The position numbers and the translations under genes were made by a program. The notes beneath the pieces are model-generated. The model was not told the DNA's origin. It saw nothing but the letters and a program-made list of their open reading frames with translations, and did not search any database. 64,000 bases of DNA from an uncultured Candidatus Saccharibacteria bacterium (GTDB taxonomy: Bacteria; Patescibacteriota; UBA1384; CAYGGE01): assembly GCA_964349485.1 (NCBI GenBank), contig CAYGGE010000001.1, forward strand, positions 4,665-68,664, read 5' to 3'. Of the stretch, positions 40,976 through 63,628 are shown one piece after another. Within the stretch, counting starts at the first letter, position 1, and each line of letters opens with the position of its first letter.

Positions 40976-41164
40976 ATCCAGAACCGGGAGACCGGGGCAA
41001 TTATCTGGTTTTCTAGTTTTCTAGTTAGTAACCAGCCAACTACTTGACCTTTTTAATTCGGATTTTTGCCATATAAGTGCTATACTTTTAAGGAAGGAAC
41101 CACCCGTCACCCGCCGTTAAGTCTATGGGTGATGAATCAGGTTTGGGTGGTAAGAAGGAGGGCA

Positions 41165-43081
41165 ATGGTCTCTAGGATCCCACGCCATCTCTCCATTTTT
41201 CTCGTAGCGACAATCGTTATGAGTTATTTCATTTCGCCAACCAATTTGAATGCCCAATCATCAGCAAGCACGACCAGCGCCGATACGATCACTGAAGATG
41301 AGGCAAGTGCGCTCATTGATGAGGCATTGGGTGGCAACGTGGCTGAGATTGTGGCAAGCAAGGACGGTGTAACCGAGGAAGAAGTCCAGCCCGATGCTTG
41401 TCTAGATAGTTTTAACCCAGCCAACGACTCAACAAAGACTGTTTTCAATGCTGGGATCATATTGAGTCGGGGCATTCCTCCCTACCTTCACCAATGTTTT
41501 ACTCTCGATGAAGACGGTGAAACGATTATTCATAAGTTTAAGTATAAGCTCCAAGGTCAGGATGGCGACACGATTTGGGAGCAACGGTTTACGCCGGCGA
41601 AGAAGACAGATCCGTCACTGCCTAAAATCTATGCGGGATGTGTTGGCATATCAAGTATCTCTGCCGCTGGAACGATCCCAATCAGGAGTTGTCAACAAAA
41701 TGCTTACCTATCTCGTGATTATTTTGCCTATGGCGAGAATGATGTCAAACTGACTACCTCGTCGTCATTTTCCGCTGTCGCTGGTTCTGGTGGCAGTATC
41801 AATGAAACTAAGCAAGTATTTAACGAAGAAGTTGAGCTCTACCAATTCGACACCGCACTCAGCCCTCGCCCGAATGCTTTCTTGGTAGTATCAATAAAAA
41901 ATAAGCTAGTGTACGGTCTCTATGAGATGAATACTGCAAGACTCCACATGAGTCCCGCCCAACGCAAGGCAGACCGTACGAAGAGCTTTACCACCGATGA
42001 CCTCAAATTTATTGCCCCAAAAAATAGCGGAACAGACTATGCCAATTTGCCAATCATTCAACACTATATTGCATCTATGAATGGTCTCATTAGCAAACAG
42101 CGTCCTGTCGCTTACCCTTTCCAACCTGTCTCGCCCGTCACCGTTCCAAACGCAGCAGACCGATCAGCCTATACAAGGCAGGGGGTAAAAAACTTGTTCG
42201 GATCAATAACGAACTCGTTTATCTTAAGAGCCGGAAGAGAGAAGGATTTGACACTTGAGGATTCAAGTGCCGATCCAAATCCAACTACCCCTCCCGTGGT
42301 ACGAATCAGCAAAGCAGCGACTGGGCTACCTCAGGATCTCACCCCAACGCTTCGCTACCTGCCCTATGTTTCCACTCGTATCGATCTGACACAATTGGCC
42401 TTCGAGGTGAAAAACAACTACTTCTTCTTTGCGTTTGACAAACTATCGGACGACATGGTCAAATCGTTCAATATTCGGGGCATCGATCCCGATCTGATCT
42501 ATTTAGCCATCGATGTCGGTGGCAATATTGCCTTCGTCGTTGAAGATACTTCCAACGGTGGTGGCATATTCCAAAACGATCGTAAAAAGCTCGATCCATT
42601 TGTTGTGTTTGGCAAGTTTGATAGTGACAATCAAGTCAGCACAAACTTGCTCAATGAATCATTGCACATCGATCGGGAAGAGTACAAACAGGTTCTAACC
42701 ACTCGGGTATATAACGAACCTCAGGTACCGAAGTCTGACGGTAAAGACTGTGGAGCTCTCGTGCTCTATCCACAGTTGAACATAGGCTATGCAGACGAAT
42801 CATTCCCTGACGGTATACCTAAAGGTGATTACCGCAAATGTATCAACACTTCACCGGACGGTTGGCTGTCAACCTGGGGCGTACAAATAAAGAAGCTCGA
42901 TTCCTTGAAAGATCCTTGTGTCTTGGCCTTTGAACAGAAGGGTAACTACTGGTTCAACTTCTTTGTTGGTGGACCGATGGGCCGTTCAGTCTGCTGGGTT
43001 GTGGGGGTAGCTACTAACGCTGCGGTCTGGATGGCTGGCTTTTCAGTCGACTTTCTTATTGGAGCTGTCGGTTTGCAGTAA
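41165..43081 (+). CDS. Secreted protein of unknown function (first gene of giant-ORF cluster); the ORF track starts at TTG 41066
   Basis: ATG 41165 is in frame with AAGGAGG just upstream. The signal peptide is MVSRIPRHLSIFLVATIVMSYFISPTNLNAQ. About 600 aa has no recognizable motif. The C-terminal hydrophobic segment is VVGVATNAAVWMAGFSVDFLIGAVGLQ. Confidence 0.7.
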   Translation: MVSRIPRHLSIFLVATIVMSYFISPTNLNAQSSASTTSADTITEDEASALIDEALGGNVAEIVASKDGVTEEEVQPDACLDSFNPANDSTKTVFNAGIILSRGIPPYLHQCFTLDEDGETIIHKFKYKLQGQDGDTIWEQRFTPAKKTDPSLPKIYAGCVGISSISAAGTIPIRSCQQNAYLSRDYFAYGENDVKLTTSSSFSAVAGSGGSINETKQVFNEEVELYQFDTALSPRPNAFLVVSIKNKLVYGLYEMNTARLHMSPAQRKADRTKSFTTDDLKFIAPKNSGTDYANLPIIQHYIASMNGLISKQRPVAYPFQPVSPVTVPNAADRSAYTRQGVKNLFGSITNSFILRAGREKDLTLEDSSADPNPTTPPVVRISKAATGLPQDLTPTLRYLPYVSTRIDLTQLAFEVKNNYFFFAFDKLSDDMVKSFNIRGIDPDLIYLAIDVGGNIAFVVEDTSNGGGIFQNDRKKLDPFVVFGKFDSDNQVSTNLLNESLHIDREEYKQVLTTRVYNEPQVPKSDGKDCGALVLYPQLNIGYADESFPDGIPKGDYRKCINTSPDGWLSTWGVQIKKLDSLKDPCVLAFEQKGNYWFNFFVGGPMGRSVCWVVGVATNAAVWMAGFSVDFLIGAVGLQ

Positions 43082-43086
43082 ATGCT

Positions 43087-45654
43087 ATGCAAAATAATAA
43101 TCGCCAACAGATCACTTATCTCGCCCTCCTAAGCCTATTCATCATGGGCATGTTTGTGGCTACATCGCCGACCGTAACACACGCCCAAGACCAGGCCGTC
43201 AGTATCGATCTGGCCGATTGTGCGACCACCCAGCGCCAGAGCACAACCAAAGCTAAAAACGATGTCGCACTGACTGAGACTAAACAATTGACCGAGAATT
43301 TTCTGCTAAATGCCTTCACCTACCAAACGCTCAATCAGCGGTTACGTTGTGATCCACTGATTGTCGGCGTTCTCGACGATCAAGGCAAGCCAACGACAAC
43401 AAGTATCTACAAGACATCACAAAACTTGGTTAATTTTGGCGTCTTAGTCGCTTTGCTCATCATTGCTTTTGCCAATATTCTGCCGCTGAAAATTGAGACC
43501 TATGCGGTAAAAAAAGCGGTACCAATGTTAGTACTTGGTGTAGTTCTCGCTAATCTAGCCCTACCAATGATCCGGACCGTAGTCGATTTTTCTGGTGTCC
43601 TGACTGCCACGCTAATTAGCTCTGCCACCCCTGAGCAGACCCGAACGGCCTTCGTCGAACAGCTCGTTAGCACTGTCTATAAGGGCGGAGCGGCGGCCAC
43701 CGGCGATGCCCTACGAGGAATTGCCACAGGTAATGGTGGGTTAAATGCGGCGATCGGCATTGTCGGTTTCGGTGTCGCGCTCGCTGGGGCAACCGGACCA
43801 TTCTTTGTGGCTCTCTTTGTCGGAGTCCTCTTCCTGATCACTCTTCCCAGTATCATTTTCCTCTATCTCGGTATCCTGTTTGTGGCCCGCATTTACGTCT
43901 TAGTCATCCTAACCGCGACCTCACCGATTGCTTTTGCCTCGATTGGCTTTGAGCCGCTCAAAGGGAAGATTTGGGCCTGGTGGTGGAAGCAGTTTATTAA
44001 CTGGACGTTCATGGCCCCGGCAACCTTCTTCCTCATGTGGGTCAGTATTCGGTTCTATCAGGCCGTTAATGAGCAACCAGATATTGGGACCTATGTCCTC
44101 ACGCTCGCCCTCCTCTTCCTCGCGGCCCAAATCCCGACCAAAATGGGTGGGACGATTATCAGTAAATGGAATGACACCTTCGCCGCTCCATTACGCAGTT
44201 TGGCTCTGAAGCCGTTTACCAGCGCCAAGGACTATGTTCAAAAGGCCGCCCCGCGCGATCTGTCTCGGTTCGCCAGCAACCGGGGGCTCAATCCAGTAAA
44301 ATTTGCCTCTGAGTTTGGCGCCGCCGTCGAGAAGAAAAATGCCGAACGCGAGACCTATTCCAAGTCTGCTGGCGCTGGTCGGTTCTATGGGACGATTCGG
44401 GGCTCAATGCAAAATGTATGGTCTAAGCAGGAAAGGGATGAAGCCTGGGCTAATCGGTTTAATAATTCCGATGTCCGCGAAGAGTTTCGAAAGAAATCTC
44501 AAATGGATATCATAAAACGCTACCATTTAGATCAGTCCATGATTGAAGATAAAACGACTAACGCTGGGAATAACGAAGACATTAGGAGTGCGCTTGAAAA
44601 AGATCGAGAGGCGGTTAAGGCTGGCACTATCACCGAACAAGAGAAGATTCGTAACATCATATTAAACCACGGTCAGCTTGGTGGTAAATTAAGCGATATC
44701 GATGCCACCGCCCTTTTTGAAAAGATTCAAAATCCCGCGCTTCGAGATGACTTAAAGAAGCTCTACGCTGCTTACTACACGAGAAAAACCGACGATCCAT
44801 ATAGTTTTGGTACATCGCCAGCCGAGCTGAGCAAGGCCAATGAAAGTCGTGATGAGCAAAATAAGGTGAAGCCGGACGAGCAGTTCTCGAAGGACTTGGC
44901 CGCACTAGGCAATCGAATTGCCAATGCCATCAGCACCGCCGCCGAAAACAAGAAAGAGAAAGAATATCTAACTCGAATGCTAGATCAGCTACGAACTATG
45001 AACATAAACCTTAATGATCTTGGAGCGATCGAAAAAGATATCAATGCCCTAGCTACTGTCAAAGCCTTGCTCAAGTATGGTAAGAATGCGCCAACCGATG
45101 GTCAAAACAGCTCTACCATGGCTGAGATTGAACAACACCGAGCCGCCCTTGGTGTAATTAGGATTGAAAAGCTTATCAGTTCTCCAAGTGGTGCGGCGTT
45201 GGCCGCCGCAATCAACCACCAGCGTCAAGAGCGGGCCGACAGTGGCGGTTCTCCATTTGTTCAGCTTGATCTAAATCAGCTCCAAGGCTTACTATCTCAA
45301 GGGACCAATCATGACCCGGCCCAAAGCCAAGCCATCAGAGAGGCTATAGAAAATACTAAAGAACTTCGAGATTTCCTTAAGCACTTGCTAACTACCTCAC
45401 TTAGTGCAAAACTCGATGTCGGAGATCTTGATAGATTGGTTAATCATGTTCTGCCCGAAGATGGCATACCAACAAAACTACATGCCGAAGCAATCAGGTC
45501 TATTGTCTCCGATAAAAATAAGGCCTCACCGGCAATTGCCCAGGAAATCGCCATGCGGGCCGAGAGCTACAATAATGCAGTCGACCAAATTAACGAAGCA
45601 AAAGCCATGCAGCAGATTACTGCCGGACACGTCACCACGACCGTCAACAGCTAG
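43087..45654 (+). CDS. Polytopic membrane protein with VirB6/TrbL-like architecture plus about 520-aa hydrophilic C-terminal extension
   Basis: Signal peptide (LALLSLFIMGMFVATSPTVTHA), about 90-aa exported N-domain, then 5-6 TM helices (LVNFGVLVALLIIAF; VPMLVLGVVLANLALPMI; IGIVGFGVALAGATGPFFVALFVGVLFLITLPSIIFLYLGILFVARIYVLVILTA; FINWTFMAPATFFLMWVSI; YVLTLALLFLAAQIP), then a long helical tail. This layout is typical of T4SS VirB6/TrbL proteins. Starts 5 nt after the upstream stop. Confidence 0.5.
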   Translation: MQNNNRQQITYLALLSLFIMGMFVATSPTVTHAQDQAVSIDLADCATTQRQSTTKAKNDVALTETKQLTENFLLNAFTYQTLNQRLRCDPLIVGVLDDQGKPTTTSIYKTSQNLVNFGVLVALLIIAFANILPLKIETYAVKKAVPMLVLGVVLANLALPMIRTVVDFSGVLTATLISSATPEQTRTAFVEQLVSTVYKGGAAATGDALRGIATGNGGLNAAIGIVGFGVALAGATGPFFVALFVGVLFLITLPSIIFLYLGILFVARIYVLVILTATSPIAFASIGFEPLKGKIWAWWWKQFINWTFMAPATFFLMWVSIRFYQAVNEQPDIGTYVLTLALLFLAAQIPTKMGGTIISKWNDTFAAPLRSLALKPFTSAKDYVQKAAPRDLSRFASNRGLNPVKFASEFGAAVEKKNAERETYSKSAGAGRFYGTIRGSMQNVWSKQERDEAWANRFNNSDVREEFRKKSQMDIIKRYHLDQSMIEDKTTNAGNNEDIRSALEKDREAVKAGTITEQEKIRNIILNHGQLGGKLSDIDATALFEKIQNPALRDDLKKLYAAYYTRKTDDPYSFGTSPAELSKANESRDEQNKVKPDEQFSKDLAALGNRIANAISTAAENKKEKEYLTRMLDQLRTMNINLNDLGAIEKDINALATVKALLKYGKNAPTDGQNSSTMAEIEQHRAALGVIRIEKLISSPSGAALAAAINHQRQERADSGGSPFVQLDLNQLQGLLSQGTNHDPAQSQAIREAIENTKELRDFLKHLLTTSLSAKLDVGDLDRLVNHVLPEDGIPTKLHAEAIRSIVSDKNKASPAIAQEIAMRAESYNNAVDQINEAKAMQQITAGHVTTTVNS

Positions 45655-45663
45655 GAGAAAGCG

Positions 45664-46092
45664 ATGATGAACATGCAGGAGCGCCAAACGATGGCCAATC
45701 AGTTAGCAAAGCTTAGGGCGCAGATCATCCAATACGATGATTGGGTCTTGAAGGCTATCCCACCTGACCTACAGCAACAGGCACGCAGTTTTTCGGCGCT
45801 CCAGCCGATTACTAGTAGCGGCCTCGAGCCAGTCCATACAATTATCAACCGGCTCGATTGGGCGATCCACTTCCTTAACGACCCCCATTTTCCAGAAAAC
45901 CAGCAGAAACAACGAACATCCATGGCATCGACTAGCATTCGACAGGTCGTGGATACTAGTAGAAACAGCCCACCACAGTATAATAATCAAGAGCCGAAGG
46001 TTACTGCAATGAAGCTAGTCAGCCAGCCAGCCACTACCTCGTCTAAACCGCTTGATTTTGGGCCTTTTGGCCCCAAGAGCCATGGTAGCTAA
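45664..46092 (+). CDS. Hypothetical protein (142 aa)
   Basis: AGGAGA RBS; no motif. Confidence 0.55.
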   Translation: MMNMQERQTMANQLAKLRAQIIQYDDWVLKAIPPDLQQQARSFSALQPITSSGLEPVHTIINRLDWAIHFLNDPHFPENQQKQRTSMASTSIRQVVDTSRNSPPQYNNQEPKVTAMKLVSQPATTSSKPLDFGPFGPKSHGS

Positions 46093-46098
46093 GGCCCA

Positions 46099-49000
46099 AT
46101 GCATAAAGCTAGAACTATACATATGAAAACGACTAAACACGACTATTATTTATATGATTATCCCGCCGACCGATGCCGTACTGAGCGGTTCCTAAAGGAT
46201 CCTATTGAGTTGCCCGGCTATCGACCAGAATTTCTCGGTACGCCACAATCCAACGATCTTCACATCGACTCGCCGCGGTTTAAGGACATGAGCTTTAAGG
46301 ATCAGATGCGGGTAATCGCGGCAAACCCTGACTTTGATCTACCGAGCATTGAGCTTAAAGACCTTGAACGCTCCCCGTTATTGAATTTTGGTGAAGGATT
46401 TGAGAGCCGACAACCGTCATCCCGCGAAGAGTGGCTGAGGCAAGAAAGCGTAGTCATCCCGCCTGGAGTTGGACCAGAAGATATCGACTGGTCAACTGCT
46501 CCTGATGCAGGTTACCAATCACCTAAGTATGGCGCCGGTAAGGCCCCCGAAAGCGCGCCGATGAGCCAAGAGGAGATGCGCGTACTCCTTTGTCATGTCA
46601 TCCCTGCCGAGCTTATCCCCTTTGTCCTAGACAATATGGTTTTCGATTACAGTAGCGATAACGACCCTGATGCACCAGTCGCGACGGTACAAGTGAAATC
46701 GAGAGCTGGTAAAGACAAGATCCATCTCGTCTTTAATAAATCGGCCTTCATCACCCGTGGCGCTCCGCGAAGTCTTCAGGAAACAGCCTTCGAGAAAGCT
46801 AACGCGATTCCCTTTCACAAAGGCAAGGCTGATACAACGATTACTAGCTTTCAAGACCCTTCAAAGATCGCACTGATTGTCAGTCGAGTGTTGGGTATGA
46901 CCCTCCCTCCCCCAGAGAACTGGCAGGACAAAGTCCCACCCGGTTTTAAGTTACTCCAAGACGATACGAAACGGGAGGCGCAACGGCGTGGTGGGCGGGC
47001 GGTAATTGAAATTGAAGATGAAGTGGGTATGGAAAACGCAACCTTCGCCGAAGCTCGTCAGCGACAGTGGGAAGACTTTGTTTCCTTAGCAATAACCGCA
47101 CCGGCTTTAGCCAAACAGACGTCTGGACTGACCTATGCCTACTTCGAACAAGCCGCTAGTCAGATGCTCGATATTAACCTAAGTGACGAGGCAGTCGAAC
47201 GCTTAAAGCTGAAAGGTAAGATTGCGATCAAGAATTTCCAGATGGTTGATCTGCGCAGTCAAGCCGACAAGGATAGAGCCAAGGCCGATGCTGGGACGGC
47301 TGGACCCGGTGGTTATTGGTTCGATAAGATATTCACCGGTGCTAATAAGGCCTTAAAAAAACTAAACCTCTTCGGCTGGAAACTTCGGATCGTCTACGAA
47401 CTACCAGAAGACCCGGCTCGCATGGCAACATTGGGCGACGATGCGGCTGAAGTCAAGAAATACCTTGAAAACTATCGACAAGAAGACCGAGAGAAGATCT
47501 TCGGACGAGTCATGCGCCAGGCTCGTCAAGACAACCCAGAAGACCGAGCTAAAGCTAGACGATTAATTCTAGCGAGTTGTGAGAGTGAAGACTGGCACGA
47601 ATGGCGCGAGATTGCTTATCTATATATGTTCTCAAAAAAATTCCGAGACAGTAAAGGTATGATGATCGACAAGTCCGACTTCCTTGATCTTCGCATGTTC
47701 CATAACACCTCATCACAGCGGGGCAAACGTTTCGGCTCGGACATGATGCCCTACAGTGCTGTCATGGCGCCCGATCCTGACGATGTAACCGGCCGTCAGA
47801 TCTTCCAATTCAAGCGTAAGTCTAAAGAACAGTACTATGCCTCAGTCCGAGCAAAGCTTGAAGAGAAATCGGAACGTGAGGTCCAGGGCGTTGCGCGTTC
47901 AACCTTTGATACATACGAACTTAGTGAGGGCGGCCGAGTAAAACCAGAGGATCTCCACAAAATCTACAGCGCTACACCTGAGGGCATGGACACTACCTAT
48001 GGTCGACTGGATAAATTACTTGGTCCAGTTCTGGCTCGTACAATCGTCAATAATTTTCTTGAGCCTTTGGGAGTTGAGCGGATACCACCCGACTCAATTT
48101 ATAGTCTTGAACGGCTAAGACGCATTGCTCTTGATCCAAAGGGTAAGGGGCTTAACGGTGAGCACATGCCTGGTCCAGCTAAGACCCTGATTGGTCACTT
48201 TGGCGCCCGACTCGACCGCCCACCGACGAAAGAGATTGGTGCGTGGCTCGAAGGAACTCATCACCTGTCATCGTCTACCCCAGCGGATCAAGTGACTGCT
48301 CTCATTAACCAAGGTGAATCACTTAAAGGCCAGCTCCTAGCGCAGATCATCAGTGTAGCGTCCATGCCGGTTGGTGGCGTTGAAGGTGGACAGCCACTCC
48401 TCTCGCGGCCAATGCGAGATAAAATGATCAAGGGCCTGCGCTCAGGCTTCCATAATTATCGCGATATTTACCAATATGTCACCGCTAACCCGCCGGAATT
48501 TAAAGCACCGCCTGATACCCCACCAGACGTCCTCCTTACATTACGCGAGCGTTACGATGAGCGCTTGCGCCAAGAACGGTCGAACCTTCTCTTTGTCCTA
48601 CATAGTCTGGCACATGACGGAACCGGCGAAAACTCGCTCGCCCTTTACGGTGAGATCGCTGAGCGCCAACGGGCAATTCTTCCTGAATCATTGAATACGA
48701 TTAGCAATGCCGCGTCGACTGTTGCACCGGAGTTGGTCATTACGACCGATCCAGGCGAGCCTGACCAAACTAGACCCGAAAATGAGCTGGATAAGAACGC
48801 CCGAGAGGCTCAAAAGGCCCAGCGAGCCGCTGATCTAGCAGACCTCGCCAAGGCTGGCCTTATCGATAAAACGGAGATGACTACCCGACTGTCCGCCAAA
48901 CGAGCAGAGATCGAGGCTTTAGTGCGCAATGAAGTGTTGAACGATGAGTATGGTAAACCTAAAACACTCAACGACGAACAGAAAGCCCAGGCAGAGCTCA

Positions 49001-49443: not shown

Positions 49444-49477
49444 CGAGCTACAGGTACCTTGATTGCCTGCCTGACTT

Positions 49478-49506
49478 TTGCTAAAATTCTCTGATATCCG
49501 TATAAT
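49478..49506 (+). promoter_or_regulatory. Internal promoter within the cluster (TTGCTA-N17-TATAAT)
   Basis: TATAAT at 49501-49506 and TTGCTA at 49478-49483, in the 81-nt gap before the 49525 ORF. AAGGAG RBS follows. Confidence 0.5.
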
Positions 49507-49524
49507 AACTGTAAGGAGCGGCGC

Positions 49525-53619: not shown

Positions 53620-53630
53620 GGAGGGAAGCC

Positions 53631-54449: not shown

Positions 54450-54451
54450 CC

Positions 54452-54796
54452 TTGGGCACACGAACCATGATCAAGCTTGACCCGATAAGCGAGAGCATCT
54501 GTCGTCGGCTTCGGCTATTCCAAGGCCTTCGACCGCTAGCTGAAGATACTGATCTAATGCACACCTTCCAAAAGGTTTTTGCGCAAGAACTTTTAACGTT
54601 CGTTGAGAGCCGGTTTGATATTGAACAGAAAACGCAACTAACACGATATCTCGAAAGCGGTCAACAACCAGACGCGACGGCCCTACTCAGTTTTGCGAAT
54701 CAGATTTTTCACGCCAATCCACAGACAGAGACGCAGTTCGAGCAACGTATCACCGCTCTTCTAGACGATTTCGTCAGTAAGGCGACCCATGCGTAG
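54452..54796 (+). CDS. Hypothetical protein (114 aa), overlaps the next gene by 8 nt
   Basis: Starts 2 nt after the upstream stop; its stop overlaps the ATG of the 54789 ORF. Confidence 0.5.
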   Translation: MGTRTMIKLDPISESICRRLRLFQGLRPLAEDTDLMHTFQKVFAQELLTFVESRFDIEQKTQLTRYLESGQQPDATALLSFANQIFHANPQTETQFEQRITALLDDFVSKATHA

Positions 54797-57700
54797 CCCA
54801 GAGCTAACCACTACGAGTAAGGGTAGCCTACACATGCCGCCCGATATTTTGGTTGGCTATTCTCTGACGCCGCCAGTATCAAAAGAATCCGATAAGACTG
54901 TATCAAGCCAACAATATGCTCGTTGGGCACCTGACATTTTGGTTGGCTATTCTCTGACGCCGCCTGTACCCAAGGAAGCTATCAGCCCTGGCATCCTGAA
55001 AGACCTTGAAGACAGTCAACGAGAGTTGCGCGAAGTGGCACAACAGAGCAGATCCGAGATCCGCGTACTTCAAAGTCTGCTCACCGAGGCAGCGGCTAAA
55101 GAGAAGCAGTTAGTCAGCGAACTGGACATACAGAAAGCCGCTCGAAGCGTAGCAGAGGCAAAGGCGAGAGAAAAAGAGACAGCCGCTGCAGCCCAACAGG
55201 CAGAGTTACGATTGAGACAGGATGCGCTCGAGGATGTAAAGCACGAATACCAATCACTCCAGGACCAACTTAAGTTGGTAGCCGAACGAGCTACAACTAT
55301 TCAAAATGAGTTAAACGCTGCGACAGCTCAGATCAAAAAACTAGAGGGAGCGGTTGCTAAGGCGGATCAAACCACAAAACTAAGTGAGGAGGCCTATCAA
55401 CGATTAGCTGAGACGATCAATCATGATGACGTAGATGCCCAAGCGGCCCAAGACGTGACAGTCGCTCGTTTGGCTGAACTCCGCAGACAGCTTACTGAAC
55501 TTCAAAAAGAAAATACTGATCTCAGTCGAGATATAGCATCGAAGACTAGTCAAATTGAGGAGCACGGGCATGCGGTAGCGGTCTCACAAGCACTGACTCT
55601 AAGTCTGATCGCGGAACGTGACCAAGCCCAAGGTTTGTTGCGACAAGCCAATGAGGCCTTCACGGTAACAGTGAAGAGTCATGAAGAGCTAATGGCTAAC
55701 CTCTTGGAGCAGTTTAACTCTACGTACAATGTGCACCAGACAGCCATCGCAACGGCGAGACAAGAAGTGGTCACAGCAATCCAAGCGAAAGATGAAGCCG
55801 AAACAGCCGCCCTCGAAGCGATGAGTAAACTTGAGGAGGCTACTACCAAGTCTGCAGCTGATTCAACGACTATCTCCCAGCTTAATCGTAGGCTCCATGA
55901 GCTAACTGAACGGACTGCGGCCGCTCAAGCCACCGCTGATCAGGCAACAACCAGAGTTAACGAACTCGAGGAGCAGAATCGACAGCTTACCGGCGAGCTA
56001 CAACGCTTCCGCGACGACCCATCAGTCGCCCGGCTTGAACAGGAAAAGATCGAACTGGCAGAGAGCTTGGCTGACAAAGAACGTGAGCTGGTCACTAGGA
56101 CTGAAGAACTCACCACAACGAGCGGTGAGTTTGCGCTACGAATCCGCACTTACGAACTTGAAATCAGTCGCCTCCATACTACTATTGAAGAAATAGTCGC
56201 ACACCACGAAAGCACTGTCGTCGAACTGCGTACAGAGCTGGCACGCGTCTCCGTACCAACAACTCAGACTGACAAAACCAGCGAGGCCGGATCGACACCC
56301 TTAGCGATCAACGAGGCCACACCACGTATTACTGAGCTTCAAGCCGAAATACGCACCCTGGAAGAACAGATTAGTCTCCAACAAGCCACTAATCAATCCT
56401 TAATTGACCAGATGACCGCCGATTCGGCCACTGCTGCGGCTGAGATAGAACGAGCCAGACAGGAATCGACTACCACCAGCCAAGAGCTTACCAGAAGACT
56501 CGACGAAGCAACAGCACAGGTGGCAGATCAAACCAGACAACTTCAGGAGATGACGGAAAGTAGTGCGATCGATATGAAGTCTGTACAGGAATCTCTGACA
56601 CAGACTGGCCTACAACTGGCCGCCGCTACCCAACAAGCGACTGAGGCAATACTACAAACTACTCAATTGACTACAGAGCTTGAGGCTGCTAAACAACAGA
56701 TTACCGAAGCGAAGGCCGAGGCAGAGCGACTGGCTACCCTCCGTGCCGAGGACGCACAACGATGGCAAGCGGAGCGTGATCGTCTGCGCCAACCTGGGTT
56801 ACTCCAACAGCTCCTCGATCGACTAATTCGACCAACACCCCCACCCCCGCCAGTCGCTCCTGGTCCTGTAGCCCCTAAGCCGGTCACTCCAGCAACCATG
56901 TCAGAAGAAGCTGAGCGAAAAAAGGTCAGTCGTCGAAGGCTATTACAGCTTGGCGGAGGCATCGCCACAACGATCACTGCGGCAGTTGTGCTTGAGAAAG
57001 TAATTAGTCCTCCAGTTAGTCAAAAAACTACGGAGACCCGCAGGGCCTTTATCGAGTCCCCTTCCCTAGCTACTCTCTATGCTGATATCAAAGAACCAGT
57101 CACAGAACAGCTGTTCATCGAACGCGGTAGTCTCATCGAAGATAAGGAAATTATCCATACGGGCTCGATTGTTCATACCGGCGACCTCCTAGATCGCTGG
57201 ACCTATTTAGCTCGTGAGCTCGCCGAAACTCAGGAAGATCACTTGAATGCAGCAACGCTGATTAAATATCGCAATACCATCCTCCTTTGTCGAAGCGCGA
57301 AAGATCTTTACCCTCAGGCAGTTAAATTTCAATTTATCGAGAAAGATGGCAAACTAACTATCATCCCGCTCGACTGGAAGGAGAAAGTAGCCGTTCGCCG
57401 AGAGATTAAGTCAGACCTAGTAATTGCCGGCGGTGAGATCGAAGCGATCGTGGCGGCGATGCATGCCGTCAAGAAAGGTATGCGACCAACTTTGATCTAT
57501 CAAACAGGCAAGTTAGGCGGTCTCAATTCGGATACTGGCGCCAATATGGCTTACTTTGATGCCGTGAATAACGGTACGGTCAAACCACCAGAGGAGATGG
57601 TTGAACTATTTCAAATTGGACTTGGCATGCCAGCAGGTAGCCTCATCTCTCTAAACAATGAAGGCCTAGATCAAAAACTACACCGGTTTTTGAAAACCCA

Positions 57701-58907
57701 TTACCCAACAGTTACTTTGATCCCCACCCGGACATTGAACTCAACGCACACCCGTACCTTGACGACCGATGTATTAGGAAAGGCACCTCGCATTGAACTC
57801 GTAACCGAGGAGGGCACCCAAATTCACGCTAACAATATGATCGACATGAGCACTGAATGCTTAATCGGTGAGAAGCTGGGTCTTGACATGACACCAGACA
57901 CGCCAAACTTGGCCTATGGCATGGTCTTCGATATCAAAAATATTAAACACCCAGAGTTAAACGCCACTGTCAAAGATGGTCGGCTTCACCCTGATAAAAT
58001 CTTAGTACTTATGGGACTCACACACACCGCTGTCGATGAACACGAAGAGCTGAAACCGTACTATCGTGAGTGTCTGGCCGCTCAGTCGAAAAACACCAAC
58101 TACTCCCCTAGCGAGAGTTGGGGCTATGCCGCCTTAGGCAACGCCTTTAATTTTTATATGAAGCTTCAGGAGTTCCACGGACCTGCAGAGCTACGGGGCA
58201 TCATTAAGGAGCTTAATCAACTTCGCCTGGTTGATGGCTTCAATGTTGCCTACCATCAAGGTGACCGAGCGACCTTCAATAGTATCAGTTGGAAATTTAA
58301 GAAACGACTCTACCAAAGTGACCACAGCGTCCACACTGATCCGGAATTTGCTGCCATCCGCCAAGTTGAGATCCCCTTACTGCAACAATTTATGCGCCAG
58401 ATCGTGGGCAACGATAGCCTTACTGTGGTACTTCCACAGGAGATGTATGTCCGTCAAGCTACGGCTCACTTCCCAACTTCGCTCGAACGAACTCGACACG
58501 ACCTTAGTCACACCCCGCTGGGTGATCCTGAAGATTCATTTAAGTATTACAACGACTATCGTGGTCTTACTCCACGTAACCAATGGGATACCTACCCTGC
58601 CGAGCTTAAGGGTGAGACCCCGGTTTACATGAAAGCCGACCCTCGTTTTACTGTGACCGTAATCCCTGGTGTCTATCTAGTCAATAAGAACGCCCAAAGC
58701 GCTGTGACCTTCGGAATTGGCCGAATTCAACAAAATCTAGCTCTCCAAGCCAGGGCGACTGTCGACGCCATGAGCCAAGGCCGGCTCGAGGCGATGGCTA
58801 GACCTTTACGTGACCAAGCAGTCGCGAGTACTAAACGATTTAACCCCAATCGAGCTTTGGTCGCTCGCTTAATCCAAAAAATGCCAAGTGAAGTCCGCAC
58901 CGTCTAA
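54789..58907 (+). CDS. Giant membrane-anchored protein (1372 aa): N-terminal duplicated motif, about 600-aa coiled coil, Pro-rich linker, single TM, about 650-aa C-terminal globular domain
   Basis: PDILVGYSLTPPV(S/P)KE x2; long Q/E/A-rich heptad region; RPTPPPPPVAPGPVAPKPVTPA linker; RRRLLQLGGGIATTITAAVVL TM; the C-domain contains a Rossmann-like beta-alpha-beta string DLVIAGGEIEAIVAAMHAVKKGMRPTLIYQ. Confidence 0.8.
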   Translation: MRSPELTTTSKGSLHMPPDILVGYSLTPPVSKESDKTVSSQQYARWAPDILVGYSLTPPVPKEAISPGILKDLEDSQRELREVAQQSRSEIRVLQSLLTEAAAKEKQLVSELDIQKAARSVAEAKAREKETAAAAQQAELRLRQDALEDVKHEYQSLQDQLKLVAERATTIQNELNAATAQIKKLEGAVAKADQTTKLSEEAYQRLAETINHDDVDAQAAQDVTVARLAELRRQLTELQKENTDLSRDIASKTSQIEEHGHAVAVSQALTLSLIAERDQAQGLLRQANEAFTVTVKSHEELMANLLEQFNSTYNVHQTAIATARQEVVTAIQAKDEAETAALEAMSKLEEATTKSAADSTTISQLNRRLHELTERTAAAQATADQATTRVNELEEQNRQLTGELQRFRDDPSVARLEQEKIELAESLADKERELVTRTEELTTTSGEFALRIRTYELEISRLHTTIEEIVAHHESTVVELRTELARVSVPTTQTDKTSEAGSTPLAINEATPRITELQAEIRTLEEQISLQQATNQSLIDQMTADSATAAAEIERARQESTTTSQELTRRLDEATAQVADQTRQLQEMTESSAIDMKSVQESLTQTGLQLAAATQQATEAILQTTQLTTELEAAKQQITEAKAEAERLATLRAEDAQRWQAERDRLRQPGLLQQLLDRLIRPTPPPPPVAPGPVAPKPVTPATMSEEAERKKVSRRRLLQLGGGIATTITAAVVLEKVISPPVSQKTTETRRAFIESPSLATLYADIKEPVTEQLFIERGSLIEDKEIIHTGSIVHTGDLLDRWTYLARELAETQEDHLNAATLIKYRNTILLCRSAKDLYPQAVKFQFIEKDGKLTIIPLDWKEKVAVRREIKSDLVIAGGEIEAIVAAMHAVKKGMRPTLIYQTGKLGGLNSDTGANMAYFDAVNNGTVKPPEEMVELFQIGLGMPAGSLISLNNEGLDQKLHRFLKTHYPTVTLIPTRTLNSTHTRTLTTDVLGKAPRIELVTEEGTQIHANNMIDMSTECLIGEKLGLDMTPDTPNLAYGMVFDIKNIKHPELNATVKDGRLHPDKILVLMGLTHTAVDEHEELKPYYRECLAAQSKNTNYSPSESWGYAALGNAFNFYMKLQEFHGPAELRGIIKELNQLRLVDGFNVAYHQGDRATFNSISWKFKKRLYQSDHSVHTDPEFAAIRQVEIPLLQQFMRQIVGNDSLTVVLPQEMYVRQATAHFPTSLERTRHDLSHTPLGDPEDSFKYYNDYRGLTPRNQWDTYPAELKGETPVYMKADPRFTVTVIPGVYLVNKNAQSAVTFGIGRIQQNLALQARATVDAMSQGRLEAMARPLRDQAVASTKRFNPNRALVARLIQKMPSEVRTV
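54842..54959 (+). repeat. Two copies of a 32/33-nt near-identical direct repeat (GA(T/C)ATTTTGGTTGGCTATTCTCTGACGCCGCC) spaced 86 nt start-to-start, inside the 54789 ORF
   Basis: Read directly at 54842-54873 and 54928-54959; each encodes DILVGYSLTPP. Confidence 0.8.
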
Positions 58908-58990
58908 AACCTGGGGATAGGCCGCTTTCCTTATCGTCTCGTACTCTGTATAATGTTAGCTAGTACGGTTTGTGAACTATAAGGAGAGGG

Positions 58991-61900
58991 ATGCCCGGAC
59001 CAGAAGGAGCAAGGCCAGGCCCTGACGAAGTTGGTATTGACGACACAGACAGTGTCGTTGATCCGGTTGCGCCTGAAGTGGCGAAACCTGAAGAAAAGTC
59101 ACCGACGCCACCTGACCCAGAGCAAGAACGTCAGAGTAGTCGAAGACTTGAACTAACCAGACAGGTTAGTTCGATGCGCAATTCTGAGTTGTTCGATGGT
59201 CTAACCGACACAGAAGATCTAATTGATATTGAGTCCTTAGCCCATACTCAACCGATTACCGAAGCGGGAAACAGTACAGTCGCAGTAGCTAGCCACGAGT
59301 TCATGCGAGACTTGATCGTACGTCGGATCGAGGGCGCAGTTAGATATATTGCCGAAGTAATTAGGCCGAGGCTTTCCGAGACGAGAGGTACAGGCACAAG
59401 ACCAGCTAAAGAACTCGCCGATGAGATCGATAACGAACTAGAGCAGGCTAGGCACAATATTGACTGGGAAATGGGAGATCTCAATTCGTTATTCAACTTC
59501 TATGTGACCCAAGTGCAGGGCCATGCACAGCGAATAACCGATCGGTTAGCGCCTAACCTTGATCTGCCTGGTCCTGGCGACTGGAACACCTGGATTCGTG
59601 AGCACCCTGAAGATATTGAAGCTGAATCAGTCGCCAGCCCAGAAACTGCCGAGCCTAAACTAGAGCGAAAAAGTGTTGCCGAACCAGTGAAGCGTCTCGA
59701 TAAAGGCGCAGCACGGGCGATTGCGGCAGGAGCGATGAGTACAATAGATAGTCTTAACCGAGGCTGGGATATTTTGATTAAAGAAATTCGCGCCTTAGGC
59801 AAAAAGAAAGTTGACGATGAACCGGTCAAACTCGATGAACCTAGGGAAGAACCTTCAGAAACAACCGAGACTACACCGCGGGTTGAACGTCAGGCAACTG
59901 AAATCGACCCTGAAGAAATACAGATGACGATGATCGATATGTATCGACGAGATGTATCTGCCGATACAGAAGAACAAGATCGTCGGGGCGATCTAACTAA
60001 TCAACAGATTTTGGAAGAAATGAGTAGGGAGCCAGAAATATACGACGCGCTTGTCAGTAAAGCGATCGCTAAAACTCTAATCAATCGAGAACTGGCGAAC
60101 GTGCGGAAAGCAACTTATGAACGCCAAAAGCAACTCGAGAAAAAGGGTGTAGCTAAAAAGCTCCTCGCCTTCCTAGGTACGACTTATGCTGGTGTTTTAG
60201 CTAGACATCTTATCCAACAAGGCCTAATCGGTGAAGCCGTTAAATGGGCTGGAACAGAAGCGACTAAAGAAACAGTTCTGGCCGCCGCTCGTGGAGTCAG
60301 CATGTGGTCAGGTATTGCCGTCGGCGGCGCCGTCGGTGCCGGATTTGGTGCCTACAGAGCCAGGGAACGGGCCAAGCGGAAGCAGTTTGAAGTCACAGCC
60401 CTCCTTGAGGCCGCCGATAGTGACGAAAAACTCAATCTCACGCCTCAAGAACGAGCCGATCTTGTCCGTAAACTATTGGTTGAAAAACGGTTCTACGGCA
60501 CGAGTGAAGCCATCGAACAAGCCTACACCTCAATTGAAGAGACCCGTCAAGCACAACTAGCCAACGAGCTACGGATTGTCCGAGACCGCCAGAAGGCTGA
60601 GACAGCTGATTATGAGAATCTCACACTCGAAGAGCGATTGAGATTAGTTGCCGAAGCCTTAACCCAGCTCTATCAAACAAGAATGGACGAGAGCGGTTCA
60701 GAAGCTACCAAAACGAGAGAGATCCAGGCTTTTATCGACGGTCGGCAACGAGTCGTCAACAAAGAGACTTGGAAGGGCGCGGCGCTTGGTGCCGTTGCCG
60801 GAGCTGTTCCAGCCGGTATCTTTGGCTGGTTCTTCCCCTCTTCAGGCTTGGTGACACAGATTAATACTGAAGTCGTGATGCGCGCTCCAGAGCGCTTGGC
60901 TGACATGGTGTCTGCGTTCACCGGAAGTAGCCCCGATCTAGCACTAGGCGACAATATGGGAGTCGATCTTCGTCATGAGTATAACGGGAAACAACTCGCG
61001 ACTTGGGCTGCTGACTATATTAAGGACGCCAAGGCTAACGGTGTCAGTACCGAGAATATTGAACGTGGGTTGCACCATCTCCTCTCCCATGCTGAAGCGA
61101 TCACCAAGAACTGGGATCAGTTCCAAAGCATCGTCCATCAACATGCAACTGATACCGGTAAAGACTTCACCCTTTCAGTCATCCACGGCGGCGCGAACGG
61201 CTTGCTCGTACCTTTTTCAGACATGGGCGCTGGTGGTGAGCTCGGCAAAGACATGGCCCACTCAATGCACAGCTACGTCACCCATGGCTTTACTAGAGAC
61301 ACGTTAAATCCCAGCTACTTACCTTACGGTGACCATCTCCATAAAACCATCAACCATATGGGATTCGAGACACCGTGGTTTGTCAGCGACCCCGTTCCCT
61401 TGATTGGAGCAATTGGTAGTTCGGCAGGAGCCAAGTTAAGCGGTAGCAGTGAGAGTATCAAGGGAGCTGTTGATAAATTGCGTAACCGTAAAAGCGAAGC
61501 AACGAAAGAACAGGTCAAGGAAAAGGAAAAGTTGGGTAATCGAGGTCCTCATGAAACGGCAGAGATCGAGATCAACCCGACGATATTCGTTGATCCGAAT
61601 GAAAATAGAGACAAGCTAGCCGACCTCAATAACTTTGTCGTCCACCGACACGGTTACTTCGTCTTTAAGCAAGACGCAGTGACTGGTAAGATGCGAGCCT
61701 TTCGACTCTGGCCTATGCAGACTGCCAAGGCAAAGACCTGGGGCGATTCTCCTAGTGGCCTGCCAGCCGCTAACGATCCAAGCATGATGAATAGCGGACC
61801 AGAAAATGGTCTCGTCCCGCATGACCCAAATGCAGTTGAATTTGGCGAGATCTATTGTCATGAAGTCGAGTTTATTGATGTTTATAACTCGAGTCGTAGT

Positions 61901-63091
61901 ATCGACCATGAAACATATAAACCGCTCGATGATCAAGACCAGGTAGCTAACACTTGGACATCAAGACGCTGGAAGACGCCCGTAGGGAAAGTACCTACGC
62001 GCATCTCCTATCAGGAACTTACAAGTGACAACAAACTTGTCGTTATCCACCCCCAGGACGCCGACAAATACGCCTACCTCATCCACCGCGATCCCAGCTT
62101 AGTCGGGCAGATTCTGGGCGATAATAAACCTGAAGCACTAGATGATTTAATCGCCAAAGTTGATAAAGCAAAGAAGCCGGAACCAACACTCGAACCAGAG
62201 CCGGAGTCAAAAGACGAAATCAAAGCCGATACTGATCCGAACAGCCTTGAAACAGCTGACTTTACCGACATTGTCGAACCGAAAGAACTCAAGCCGGGCG
62301 AGATCTTAAAACATAAGTCCGGTATCTTCTTACGGGTCAAAGATAACTTATCTGATAGAATCACCGCCTACCGTTTCAGTAAGGATGATAAGCGCACGGG
62401 CAATGAGTTACTTTGGCTCGACCCCCAACAGATTGCCCACACTATCCTAGTGACTGATTTTCAGATTTATCGTAAAGAAGATCCGGCTCCAGAGCCACCG
62501 AAAGATGACGATTCAAGCGCGATTGAGCCTGAGCCAGATAAACGTTTTGAGTCTGCTCTTTACCCCAATAACCAATTTAGGAGAATCGAACAGCAAGATG
62601 TTGATGAAGGCAAAATCAGGCCTGAGGCGATCATCATGAATCAACAATACGGCACCAAATACAAGCTGATTGAACGACAGACTGTATATGATCAGAATGG
62701 TAATGAGGTACATACTTGGAGAATTGGCCTACTCGACCCCAACGACAACTTTAATGAATTAAATAGCGCCAAGCAGCCAATGTATCTTCTTGAGCAGTTC
62801 AACACCAATGATTACTTACTTTTTGAACCTTTATCCGAAACCCCACCCACCCTAGATAAATTTGTCGCCGAGAATTTTGAAGTTAATGATGATCCAAGGG
62901 TCTATGAGTCAAAATTCGTAGTCAGAAAAGACCACAATGTATATAAACTGCTTACGAAGAAAGATGATTTCTGGTTTGTCAGAATCTTGCGCGATGGTAG
63001 ATGGCAGAAGTCAGGAGATAGGATTACTGAAGATGAGATCGAAGCAGGCAAGATTTCGTTACATAAGGAGCAAACGCCCGAAGTCACTTAG
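58991..63091 (+). CDS. Giant hypothetical protein (1366 aa) with acidic N-terminus and two glycine-zipper hydrophobic segments
   Basis: AAGGAGAGGG RBS; GIAVGGAVGAGFGAY and GAALGAVAGAVPAGIFGWFF GxxxG-type segments; no enzymatic motif recognized. Confidence 0.8.
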   Translation: MPGPEGARPGPDEVGIDDTDSVVDPVAPEVAKPEEKSPTPPDPEQERQSSRRLELTRQVSSMRNSELFDGLTDTEDLIDIESLAHTQPITEAGNSTVAVASHEFMRDLIVRRIEGAVRYIAEVIRPRLSETRGTGTRPAKELADEIDNELEQARHNIDWEMGDLNSLFNFYVTQVQGHAQRITDRLAPNLDLPGPGDWNTWIREHPEDIEAESVASPETAEPKLERKSVAEPVKRLDKGAARAIAAGAMSTIDSLNRGWDILIKEIRALGKKKVDDEPVKLDEPREEPSETTETTPRVERQATEIDPEEIQMTMIDMYRRDVSADTEEQDRRGDLTNQQILEEMSREPEIYDALVSKAIAKTLINRELANVRKATYERQKQLEKKGVAKKLLAFLGTTYAGVLARHLIQQGLIGEAVKWAGTEATKETVLAAARGVSMWSGIAVGGAVGAGFGAYRARERAKRKQFEVTALLEAADSDEKLNLTPQERADLVRKLLVEKRFYGTSEAIEQAYTSIEETRQAQLANELRIVRDRQKAETADYENLTLEERLRLVAEALTQLYQTRMDESGSEATKTREIQAFIDGRQRVVNKETWKGAALGAVAGAVPAGIFGWFFPSSGLVTQINTEVVMRAPERLADMVSAFTGSSPDLALGDNMGVDLRHEYNGKQLATWAADYIKDAKANGVSTENIERGLHHLLSHAEAITKNWDQFQSIVHQHATDTGKDFTLSVIHGGANGLLVPFSDMGAGGELGKDMAHSMHSYVTHGFTRDTLNPSYLPYGDHLHKTINHMGFETPWFVSDPVPLIGAIGSSAGAKLSGSSESIKGAVDKLRNRKSEATKEQVKEKEKLGNRGPHETAEIEINPTIFVDPNENRDKLADLNNFVVHRHGYFVFKQDAVTGKMRAFRLWPMQTAKAKTWGDSPSGLPAANDPSMMNSGPENGLVPHDPNAVEFGEIYCHEVEFIDVYNSSRSIDHETYKPLDDQDQVANTWTSRRWKTPVGKVPTRISYQELTSDNKLVVIHPQDADKYAYLIHRDPSLVGQILGDNKPEALDDLIAKVDKAKKPEPTLEPEPESKDEIKADTDPNSLETADFTDIVEPKELKPGEILKHKSGIFLRVKDNLSDRITAYRFSKDDKRTGNELLWLDPQQIAHTILVTDFQIYRKEDPAPEPPKDDDSSAIEPEPDKRFESALYPNNQFRRIEQQDVDEGKIRPEAIIMNQQYGTKYKLIERQTVYDQNGNEVHTWRIGLLDPNDNFNELNSAKQPMYLLEQFNTNDYLLFEPLSETPPTLDKFVAENFEVNDDPRVYESKFVVRKDHNVYKLLTKKDDFWFVRILRDGRWQKSGDRITEDEIEAGKISLHKEQTPEVT

Positions 63092-63111
63092 GCTAATAAC
63101 AAGGAGACAAT

Positions 63112-63513
63112 ATGGATGACGACAATGCCCAATCGCTCGACACTTACCGTGAACAATACACTTTTTACGCAAAGAAGTTGCTCTCTGACCTTGGTCTCGG
63201 TGATCTCGGCCAACCCGAACGAACAGAGCTACTTTCAACTATTGAGCAGTATGTCCAGCAAGTGATCATGAATACCCTGCTCGAGAACCTTGATGAGCCA
63301 ATTACTACCGAGGCAGAGAAAATACTGAACGAAGGTGGCACGCAGGAAGATGCCTTGGTCTATATCATGAGCGCCATCCCCGACATTGAATACCGCATTA
63401 CCGTCGCCCTGACTGAATCGTACGCCCGCATGGTCGACGAGGCCAGACAGCTTGCTGATACTCTCGCCGCCAATAAGCCCAAGCAAGCGGCACACGCCCA
63501 AGCGACTGAGTAA
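63112..63513 (+). CDS. Small acidic hypothetical protein (133 aa), last gene of the cluster
   Basis: AAGGAGA RBS; followed by a terminator. Confidence 0.6.
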   Translation: MDDDNAQSLDTYREQYTFYAKKLLSDLGLGDLGQPERTELLSTIEQYVQQVIMNTLLENLDEPITTEAEKILNEGGTQEDALVYIMSAIPDIEYRITVALTESYARMVDEARQLADTLAANKPKQAAHAQATE

Positions 63514-63544
63514 TAACGGGCGAATAAGTTAACCCGAACCGAGA

Positions 63545-63572
63545 AACGGGCTTGACAGACAGCCCGTTTTTT
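63545..63572 (+). terminator. Rho-independent terminator closing the giant-ORF cluster
   Basis: Stem AACGGGCT/AGCCCGTT (8 bp), loop TGACAGAC, followed by TTTTTTGG. Confidence 0.75.
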
Positions 63573-63580: not shown

Positions 63581-63628
63581 CCTAGGTCGTCAATCAAGGC
63601 GACTCGTGATCAACTAAGGAGATCACTC

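Follow-up and report, generated by a model that had tools for sequence, protein, structure and literature searches.

Genes for giant proteins separate a VirB6-like gene from virB4 in a probable chromosomal type IV secretion locus of a Candidatus Saccharibacteria bacterium

A block of ten co-directional genes (g1 to g10) occupies the last third of a 64,000-nucleotide (nt) stretch of DNA from an uncultured Candidatus Saccharibacteria bacterium (the window; assembly GCA_964349485.1, contig CAYGGE010000001.1, positions 4,665 to 68,664 of the forward strand). Our analyses indicate that this block is probably the upstream arm of a chromosomal type IV secretion system (T4SS) locus of the Patescibacteria type, i.e., of the monoderm kind derived from mating-pair formation FATA (MPF-FATA) systems. 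The second gene of the block codes for a VirB6-like membrane protein, and a gene for the VirB4 ATPase lies on the same strand just past the end of the window. This type of system is known; the arrangement of the locus is new, with the virB6 and virB4 parts some 22 kb apart and genes for giant proteins between them, two of which (g4 and g5) are fixed in a rare lineage. A first-pass annotation of the window had described the block as an undescribed apparatus and not a conventional T4SS. The linkage of g2 to VirB4 leaves that description unsupported, whereas the alternative raised in the same annotation, a T4SS-like channel with its NTPases encoded elsewhere, is borne out by the position of virB4.

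RESULTS

The g2 product is a VirB6-like membrane protein

43087-45654, + strand: g2, extended VirB6-like polytopic membrane protein, 855 amino acids (aa)

The g2 protein starts with a cleavable-looking signal peptide, followed by a loop with two invariant Cys residues, 6-7 hydrophobic helices (residues 107-386) and a hydrophilic tail of about 455 aa made of helical repeats. An invariant WxxWW-F-W-FMxP stretch is found among the transmembrane (TM) helices (TM region, residues about 100-390). This layout corresponds to that of the 'extended VirB6' proteins, described as polytopic inner-membrane proteins with five or more TM helices and a large hydrophilic domain (PMC12857230).

We modeled residues 1-400 of g2 with AlphaFold2 from a 17-member alignment, which yielded a pLDDT of 66.5, with values mostly between 70 and 90 in the TM core. 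Comparison of the model with the PDB using Foldseek returned chains of the R388 stalk as its top four matches, with modest scores (probability 0.91-0.98, E value 0.15-0.6), and both fold-search methods that were used ranked VirB6 first. When 1.84 billion representative proteins were searched with a profile of the TM domain, 6206 of them matched at E <= 1e-3. Among 56 remote relatives sampled, one has a TrbL_4 match that falls within the shared domain (residues 230-336), and others match the TrbL/VirB6 family PF04610, as detailed below. The g2 subfamily proper is small, with 17 members among 5.8 billion clustered proteins, and no member of it was present in the scanned GTDB species-representative genomes; the genome scan with the TM domain found one distant Saccharibacteria metagenome-assembled genome (MAG) only.

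The gene neighborhoods of g2 relatives provided a further line of evidence. Among the loci of relatives fetched for comparison (L002-L005 and L007-L012), L007, which is that uncultured Candidatus Saccharibacteria MAG, has two tandem VirB6-like genes (933 and 811 aa) that abut genes for PrgI, a TrsD-like protein and VirB4 (positions 27-5456). In L012, a g2 relative (E 1e-73) is located 3.3 kb upstream of genes for PrgI, a TraC-like protein, VirB4, and SLT and M23 proteins. Topology, fold, the chain of homology to PF04610-matching relatives, and linkage to PrgI, TrsD-like and VirB4 genes thus support g2 as an extended VirB6-like subunit, with no direct match to a family model. The VirB6/TrbL-like call of the first-pass annotation is supported on these grounds but not by the PF04610 test itself. 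The g2 protein exemplifies how far VirB6 diverges, as it is missed by PF04610 while its fold and gene neighbors are kept.

The T4SS core genes follow the block

The region examined in this genome was the window together with a Logan contig that carries g10 (L006), about 76 kb altogether. Bases 1-2404 of the contig are identical (2404/2404) to window positions 61597-64000. The genes pertinent here are the following, with positions beyond 64000 given as window equivalents:

63629-64000, continuing past the window end, + strand: first gene of the downstream arm, 345 aa, GTG start, one TM segment
about 67290-67763, outside the window, + strand: PrgI/VirB3, PF12666 match at E 1.3e-9, above the gathering threshold
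about 67772-68401, outside the window, + strand: TrsD/TraC-like protein, 209 aa, precomputed PF26593 match, homologous to its L007 and L012 equivalents
about 68398-70212 (L006 6802-8616), outside the window, + strand: VirB4 ATPase, 604 aa, matches to P-loop_TraG (E 1.2e-28), AAA_10 (E 7e-13) and DUF87 (E 1.5e-10)

After the 345-aa gene, the contig codes for three paralogous single-pass proteins, PrgI/VirB3, the TrsD/TraC-like protein, VirB4 and further exported proteins, including one with a PEGA domain. The PrgI-TrsD-VirB4 set is found 3.8-6.7 kb past the last gene of the block on the same strand, with the start of virB4 about 4.9 kb past g10. Identity of the VirB4 protein to its L007 and L012 counterparts is 55-59% (55% for the Saccharibacteria MAG). 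Together with the gene content, this similarity puts the organism within or close to Saccharibacteria among the Patescibacteria. The PF26593 match of the TrsD-like protein is a precomputed annotation that an independent Pfam scan did not reproduce. The 345-aa protein has a weak GH25 match (E 0.002, below threshold). A 264-aa gene that follows virB4 has no Pfam match; L012 has its SLT and M23 genes in that place.

The absence of NTPases noted in the first-pass annotation is correct within the window, as no Walker A motif occurs in any of g1-g10, but it ends about 4.9 kb beyond g10 with VirB4. g2 is the single VirB6-like gene seen in the region examined. No relaxase and no coupling protein (VirD4/TcpA) were found in the window or in L006, and the lack of both is typical of the Patescibacteria T4SS clade (PMC12102498).

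The three single-pass paralogues, which are diverged tandem copies of 208, 246 and 230 aa (L006 3120-5598; window equivalents about 64716-67194), each contain one WD40-like repeat motif (SPNGSRL...DGY.HLWN) and are placed between the block and prgI. Saccharibacteria often carry arrays of divergent VirB2-like pilin genes in that position before prgI.

We considered that the block might encode an undescribed envelope or surface machine unrelated to T4SSs, in which case the g2 fold would be a convergent helical bundle. Nine of the ten proteins lack a family-model match, g2 itself is unmatched by PF04610, and its structural scores are modest, all of which would fit such a machine. However, two independent fold searches rank VirB6 first, remote g2 relatives match TrbL, and relatives of g2 adjoin the PrgI, TrsD-like and VirB4 genes in L007, L012 and the described T4SS locus of Southlakia epibionticum. 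Furthermore, virB4 is 4.9 kb downstream in this very genome, and g7-g8 can be separated from the rest. We therefore regard this explanation as very unlikely, the linkage to VirB4 having largely refuted it.

The order of g1-g6 is conserved at one chromosomal site

The genes immediately upstream of the block code for a DUF2207 protein, HolA, PolA, a Mur ligase, FemAB, LeuRS and then a TPR protein. The order g1-g6 is kept beside FemAB-LeuRS-TPR in L002, L003 and L009, and g1-g4 are kept in the more distant L010. At the protein level, g1 is 26-35%, g4 24-27% and g5 23-34% identical to the homologues in the relatives; g2 is 31-39% identical, and its TM domain 44-55%. The first-pass annotation had proposed conservation of the entire ten-gene block as a check; this conservation extends over g1-g6 but was not shown for g7-g10, and the g7-g8 pair is found elsewhere outside such a cluster.

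The conserved site bears on the question of mobility. T4SS genes are classically found on mobile elements, and a tyrosine recombinase gene is present at 22964-24061, as might be expected if the block belonged to an integrative and conjugative element (ICE), a conjugative island, a prophage or a contractile injection system. Yet the same chromosomal housekeeping flank (PolA, Mur ligase, FemAB, LeuRS, TPR) is found in four diverged relatives, and window scans found no relaxase, type IV coupling protein (T4CP), capsid, terminase, sheath or tube. In addition, tblastn gave no match in plasmid (g4, g5 and g9) or phage (g5 and g9) collections, GC content is even, and there is no tRNA. A mobile element of any of these kinds is hardly credible. 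The ICE identity was rejected on account of the conserved housekeeping flanks and the lack of a relaxase. Prophage, contractile injection system and defense island were likewise discarded, with one faint PHROGs match of unknown function, none in PADLOC and none by tblastn against phages. The first-pass statement that the block is neither a prophage nor a contractile injection system was thus upheld, as no supporting profile was found with Pfam, PHROGs or PADLOC. So was its remark that the composition of the block matches the surrounding chromosome, with a GC content of 0.48-0.52, the same as in the remainder of the window. Neither tRNA genes nor Rfam elements were found in the window.

Further upstream, the window contains genes for CTP synthase, a TrpRS/TyrRS-type synthetase, GroEL, YchF, RecQ, the tyrosine recombinase, M16 peptidases and an MraY-type transferase. 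The recombinase (22964-24061, - strand), which has a Phage_integrase domain and a SAM-like N-terminal domain, is probably of the XerC/D type, and no mobile-element features were seen around it. Two open reading frames (ORFs) among the housekeeping genes have no Pfam match (20406-22391, + strand, 661 aa; 15695-16984, - strand, 429 aa). A WD40 beta-propeller protein of 365 aa is encoded at 2459-3556 (- strand), and a similar gene is present beside polA in L002 (595-1680).

Organization of the block

The remaining genes and signals of the block are as follows:

41165-43081, + strand: g1, exported protein, 638 aa from ATG (671 aa if started at TTG 41066), 5 nt upstream of g2
45664-46092, + strand: g3, small basic soluble protein, 142 aa, isoelectric point (pI) 9.45
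46099-49443, + strand: g4, soluble protein, 1114 aa, without signal peptide or TM segment
49478-49506, + strand: promoter-like TTGCTA-17-TATAAT sequence between g4 and g5 (81-nt gap), with TATAAT at 49501-49506
49525-53619, + strand: g5, soluble protein, 1364 aa, without signal peptide; the best conserved of the giants
53631-54449, + strand: g6, acidic protein, 272 aa, pI 4.2, always directly after g5
54452-54796, + strand: g7, small helical protein, 114 aa, pI 5.5, its 3' end overlapping the start of g8 by 8 nt
54789-58907, + strand: g8, 1372 aa, coiled coil and flavoprotein-fold C-terminal domain
58949-58954, + strand: -10 box, TATAAT, between g8 and g9 (83-nt gap), without a convincing -35 box and not called by the promoter scan
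58991-63091, + strand: g9, 1366 aa, without signal peptide
63112-63513, + strand: g10, acidic helical protein, 133 aa, pI 4.2, with weak similarity to both g7 and the g6 N-terminal domain
63538-63575, + strand: intrinsic terminator, hairpin and U run, folding free energy -23.7 kcal/mol, z -6.4; ends the g9-g10 unit

The ten + strand ORFs (41066/41165-63513) all lie where the first-pass annotation had placed them. Those among them that are 855-1372 aa long and have homologues elsewhere cannot be chance products. From g1 to g10 the ORFs are separated by 5, 9, 6, 81, 11 and 2 nt, an 8-nt overlap, and 83 and 20 nt; the last of these, between g9 and g10, was missing from the earlier list of gaps. 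Co-directionality, short spacing, the two gaps that contain TATAAT and the closing terminator were all confirmed. In contrast, the single operon that had been proposed is not borne out, as the two promoter signals and the terminator argue for about three transcription units, g1-g4, g5-g8 and g9-g10.

A near-consensus promoter-like sequence, TTGACA-17-TACAAT (11/12 matches, with TG), is present at 63552-63580, where it overlaps the terminator hairpin and precedes the gene that starts with GTG at 63629. In relatives, the g4 and g5 homologues are separated by a gene on the minus strand (382-412 aa; L002 16191-17396, L003 12127-13365, L009 16414-17562), for which Pfam gave no match. That gene is lacking in the window, where just the 81-nt gap (49444-49524) with its promoter-like site is left.

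Translation of g1 most likely starts at ATG 41165, since a GGAGG site is located ahead of this codon and the source contig's gene call is of 638 aa; the longer ORF from TTG 41066 given by the first-pass annotation exists but is the less likely reading. The g1 protein starts with a signal or anchor helix and has another hydrophobic helix at its extreme C terminus (hydrophobic segments, residues 5-23 and 619-637); its extracytoplasmic body contains Cys residues. Homologues of g1 are encoded directly 5' of the g2 homologue in L002, L003, L009 and L010, and their Cys residues are invariant. It has no match in Pfam, and a PDB search with the g1-family profile gave nothing. On the other side of g2, g3 has homologues in L002, L003 and L009, and in this lineage it always comes next after the VirB6-like gene. 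The g3 position is also taken by a small gene of 81 aa in L010 and of 122 aa in L011. Among the "four small acidic proteins" of the first-pass annotation, g6 and g10 are indeed acidic, g7 is only mildly so and g3 is basic.

The giant proteins and their small neighbors

None of the ten proteins gave a match above threshold in the Pfam, NCBIfam, PHROGs and PADLOC scans, and PDB searches with the g1, g2, g4 and g5 family profiles and with g9 returned just coiled-coil or designed-repeat noise. All-against-all comparison and hhalign of the cluster families revealed no paralogy among the giants, the only similarity being a marginal one between the N-terminal domain of g6, g7 and g10.

Homologues of g4 are found at the same position in L002, L003, L009 and L010 and are restricted to this lineage, with no match in Pfam, NCBIfam, the PDB, PHROGs, PADLOC or plasmids (tblastn). 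Homologues of g5 are present in L002, L003 and L009. For g5, no match was found in Pfam, the PDB, plasmids or phages (tblastn), and a word-indexed profile search returned the query only. Scans of genome, metagenome and viral collections with the g5 family, and of metagenomes with the g6 family, detected no locus. Homologues of g4 and g5 thus occur only in a narrow lineage. In g9, the N-terminal third is acidic and the C-terminal half measures about 600 aa; segments rich in glycine and of weak hydrophobicity are found at residues about 386-455 and 597-615. The first-pass label of "ORFan giants" therefore applies to g9, for which no homologue was found in the databases and loci searched, but not to g8, which is related to PF12831, nor to g4 and g5 with their homologues in the narrow lineage. 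Identification of the giants as RHS or adhesin-repeat proteins was rejected, as there were no matches and g9 has no internal repeats.

Each of the giants devoid of a signal (g4, g5 and g9) is followed by a gene for a small helical protein, and g4 is also preceded by one. The g6 protein consists of a highly conserved helical N-terminal domain of about 110 aa, with faint similarity to DUF5663, and an acidic tail that varies. Over the first 109 aa, identity to the L002 and L003 homologues is 57-60%, and the L009 homologue is more divergent.

That a small acidic protein repeatedly comes after a large one is reminiscent of toxin-immunity cassettes, in which the giants would be polymorphic antibacterial toxins directed against the host and g6 (after g5) and g10 (after g9) the immunity proteins. 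Patescibacteria that live as epibionts can harm or kill the bacteria they grow on, and there are known T4SS effectors that act between bacteria and have immunity genes; this general background, together with the apparent species specificity of g9-g10, would be in keeping with such cassettes. Nevertheless, no toxin, RHS/YD or nuclease domain was detected with Pfam or NCBIfam, and g5-g6 are conserved orthologues in fixed synteny, unlike a polymorphic family with variable tips. Moreover, the N-terminal domain of g6 is better conserved than g5 (57-60% versus 23-34%), and g7 comes before g8, not after it. Toxin-immunity cassettes are hence an improbable explanation.

The g7-g8 pair is a separable module

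In g8, a coiled coil of about 620 aa is followed by a Pro-rich linker and then, at residues 714-739, by the sequence SRRRLLQLGGG and a segment of weak hydrophobicity; the C-terminal domain comprises about 600 aa. The first-pass annotation had called the protein single-pass; the segment is present but it is hydrophobic just weakly (Kyte-Doolittle 1.49, residues 721-739). The search with the C-terminal 650 aa yielded 11 homologues, 8 of which have a precomputed PF12831 annotation. This domain has a two-dinucleotide-binding flavoprotein fold similar to PF12831 (FAD_oxidored), and the score of g8 itself is below the Pfam threshold. It differs from PF12831 proteins by its glycine motif, as GxGxxG is degenerate in the g8 family (GGEIEA/GNELES), with G-[GN]-E-[LI]-E-[SA] in 12/12 aligned sequences; binding of a cofactor is therefore uncertain. 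It also differs in that the g8-type domain is fused behind a hydrophobic segment, preceded in g8 by the coiled coil, and is always paired with a small upstream gene. An SMC/Rad50 identity of g8 was rejected, since the protein has no ABC ATPase head and no Walker A motif and its matches are at the level of coiled coils only (22 bits versus cut-offs of 567-729); the SMC-like noise in the NCBIfam scan stems from the long coiled coil.

The SRRRLLQLGGG sequence is an internal twin-arginine-like motif that directly precedes the only hydrophobic segment of g8 (motif and segment together, window 56928-57005). It would be an unusual internal Tat-like signal anchor if the downstream domain is exported. 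The N terminus of g8 contains an exact 13-aa duplication, PDILVGYSLTPPV (residues 18-30 and 48-60; window 54840-54968).

In L004 and L008, the g8 homologues are directly preceded by a g7-like gene; in L005, the same overlapping position is taken by a gene of 95 aa. As the pair occurs at these loci outside a cluster of the present kind, g7-g8 represent a separable two-gene module. The g7 and g8 homologues of L008 come after a g10 homologue (E 1e-39).

This distribution favors the chief competing explanation, in which the neighborhood is composite. Only g1-g2, and perhaps g3, would then belong to a T4SS, and the giants g4, g5, g8 and g9 and their partners would be independent lineage-specific proteins with cytoskeletal, envelope or host-interaction roles, encoded in a permissive region between virB6 and virB4. 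The g7-g8 homologues of L004 and L005 are surrounded by unrelated housekeeping or metabolic genes, and the gene order in L008 is g10-g7-g8. In L012, L007 and Southlakia no giants are found between the VirB6-like gene and prgI. The split of the block by promoter-like signals and a terminator, as well as the opposite-strand gene between g4 and g5 in relatives, also speaks for a composite origin. On the other hand, the order g3-g6 after the VirB6-like gene is kept at 23-40% protein identity, which is beyond what a neutral insertion site would be expected to show, and g2, g3 and g4 are tightly spaced (9 and 6 nt). We consider a composite neighborhood quite possible, though we do not favor it.

DISCUSSION

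Strength of the T4SS assignment

Several observations weigh against assigning the block to a T4SS locus. As regards g2, the comparison of 43087-45654 with PF04610 that the first-pass annotation had proposed gave no match at E <= 1 for g2 or any of 16 close homologues. NCBIfam yielded no TrbL/VirB6 match for g2, and a PDB sequence search with the g2 profile found no VirB6. The PF04610 matches of 7 of the 56 sampled remote relatives (best E 5.8e-7) are supportive only. As regards the core, neither a T4CP/VirD4 nor a VirB8-like (NTF2) protein was recognized in the 76 kb, nor was a VirB2-like pilin by Pfam, small ORFs not having been searched with pilin profiles. The terminator and four other genes intervene between g10 and prgI, and the block itself is divided into about three transcription units. 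The synteny comparison in close relatives covers g1-g6. The g7-g8 homologues of L004, L005 and L008 are away from any T4SS genes, and no g9 homologue was found in Pfam, NCBIfam, the PDB, plasmids, phages or the fetched loci beyond its own genome. Finally, g4, g5, g8 and g9 are tied to secretion by position alone.

A working model

If the block is the upstream arm of a T4SS locus, comparison with known systems suggests roles for its better-understood parts. Oligomers of g2 would form the translocation channel or the base of the stalk in the cytoplasmic membrane and would dock via PrgI onto a VirB4 hexamer acting as transport motor. Putative wall hydrolases, encoded by the GH25-like gene and genes after virB4, would open the peptidoglycan. 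By the same analogy, g1, which is exported, contains Cys residues and is anchored at its C terminus, may be the extracytoplasmic partner of g2.

The position of g3-g6 suggests that they may be lineage-specific accessory factors or substrates. From their position too, and with low confidence, g4, g5 and g9 might be cargo or effector-like proteins, with g3, g6 and g10 as small helical adaptor or chaperone partners, or they might be cytoplasmic scaffolds. The g7-g8 pair, a small protein and a membrane-anchored protein with coiled coil and flavoprotein fold, would be an independently distributed module that landed in the T4SS locus.

We tentatively propose, with more doubt than conviction, that the T4SS of this rare lineage gained the conserved partners g1, g3, g4, g5 and g6 as well as the species-specific g9 and g7-g8, and that the giants are either substrates delivered into a host bacterium or parts of a new cytoplasmic superstructure, each with its small helical adaptor. 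If this is true, the giants would represent the first cargo candidates of any T4SS in Patescibacteria. Large proteins without signals, encoded with small partners between virB6 and virB4, represent concrete candidates for substrates or new structural parts. If the giants prove to be unrelated to secretion, the region would be a T4SS locus with hitch-hiking lineage-specific genes.

Comparison with known systems

T4SSs of Patescibacteria have already been described, in the SEML1_0004-0019 locus of Southlakia epibionticum ML1 (Wang et al. 2023, PMC10633639) and as a clade by Quinonero-Coronel et al. 2025 (PMC12102498). In the only species tested, experiments showed the Southlakia locus to be essential for epibiotic growth (PMC10633639). 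No cargo of Patescibacteria T4SSs is known; they have no relaxase and no known effectors (PMC10633639; PMC12857230). The core of the Southlakia locus codes for two VirB6-like proteins with ARM-repeat tails (1088 and 998 aa; SEML1_0013 and SEML1_0011), PrgI, a TrsD-like protein, VirB4, hydrolases and a PEGA protein.

Like the Southlakia locus and the Patescibacteria clade, the locus studied here is chromosomal, devoid of a relaxase and made up of co-directional genes. It shares with Southlakia the extended VirB6-like protein with a helical-repeat tail, PrgI/VirB3, the TrsD-like protein, VirB4 and a PEGA protein; for the wall hydrolases of Southlakia, the candidate counterpart here is the protein with the weak GH25 match. 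It differs from Southlakia in that a single VirB6-like gene lies some 22 kb from prgI-virB4, and in what is interposed, namely, genes for four proteins of 1114-1372 aa, four small partners, the GH25-like protein and the three single-pass paralogues. Unlike in Southlakia, no VirB2-like pilin array or NTF2/VirB8-like gene was recognized, and the locus is found beside the LeuRS gene rather than beside dnaA.

Identity between g2 and TrwI/VirB6 of plasmid R388 (PDB 7o3v, 8rt9, 8rtd) is 12-14%, with no PF04610 match, and g2 has in addition the cleavable-looking signal peptide, the Cys-pair loop and the 455-aa hydrophilic tail. Since the organism is monoderm, an outer-membrane core of VirB7/9/10 is absent. 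VirB5 has no recognized homologue here; g1 occupies the upstream gene position of VirB5, with no detectable similarity to it.

A parallel in gene order exists with Gram-positive MPF-FATA conjugation systems such as PrgH-PrgI-PrgJ of pCF10 and TrsC/TrsD/TrsE of pGO1 (PMC12102498), in which, as here, PrgI, a TrsD-like protein and a VirB4-type ATPase are encoded in a row, with a polytopic VirB6/PrgH analogue upstream. Relative to those plasmid systems, neither a relaxase nor a coupling protein nor a PrgB-type adhesin was seen, giants are interposed, and the locus is chromosomal and syntenic across species.

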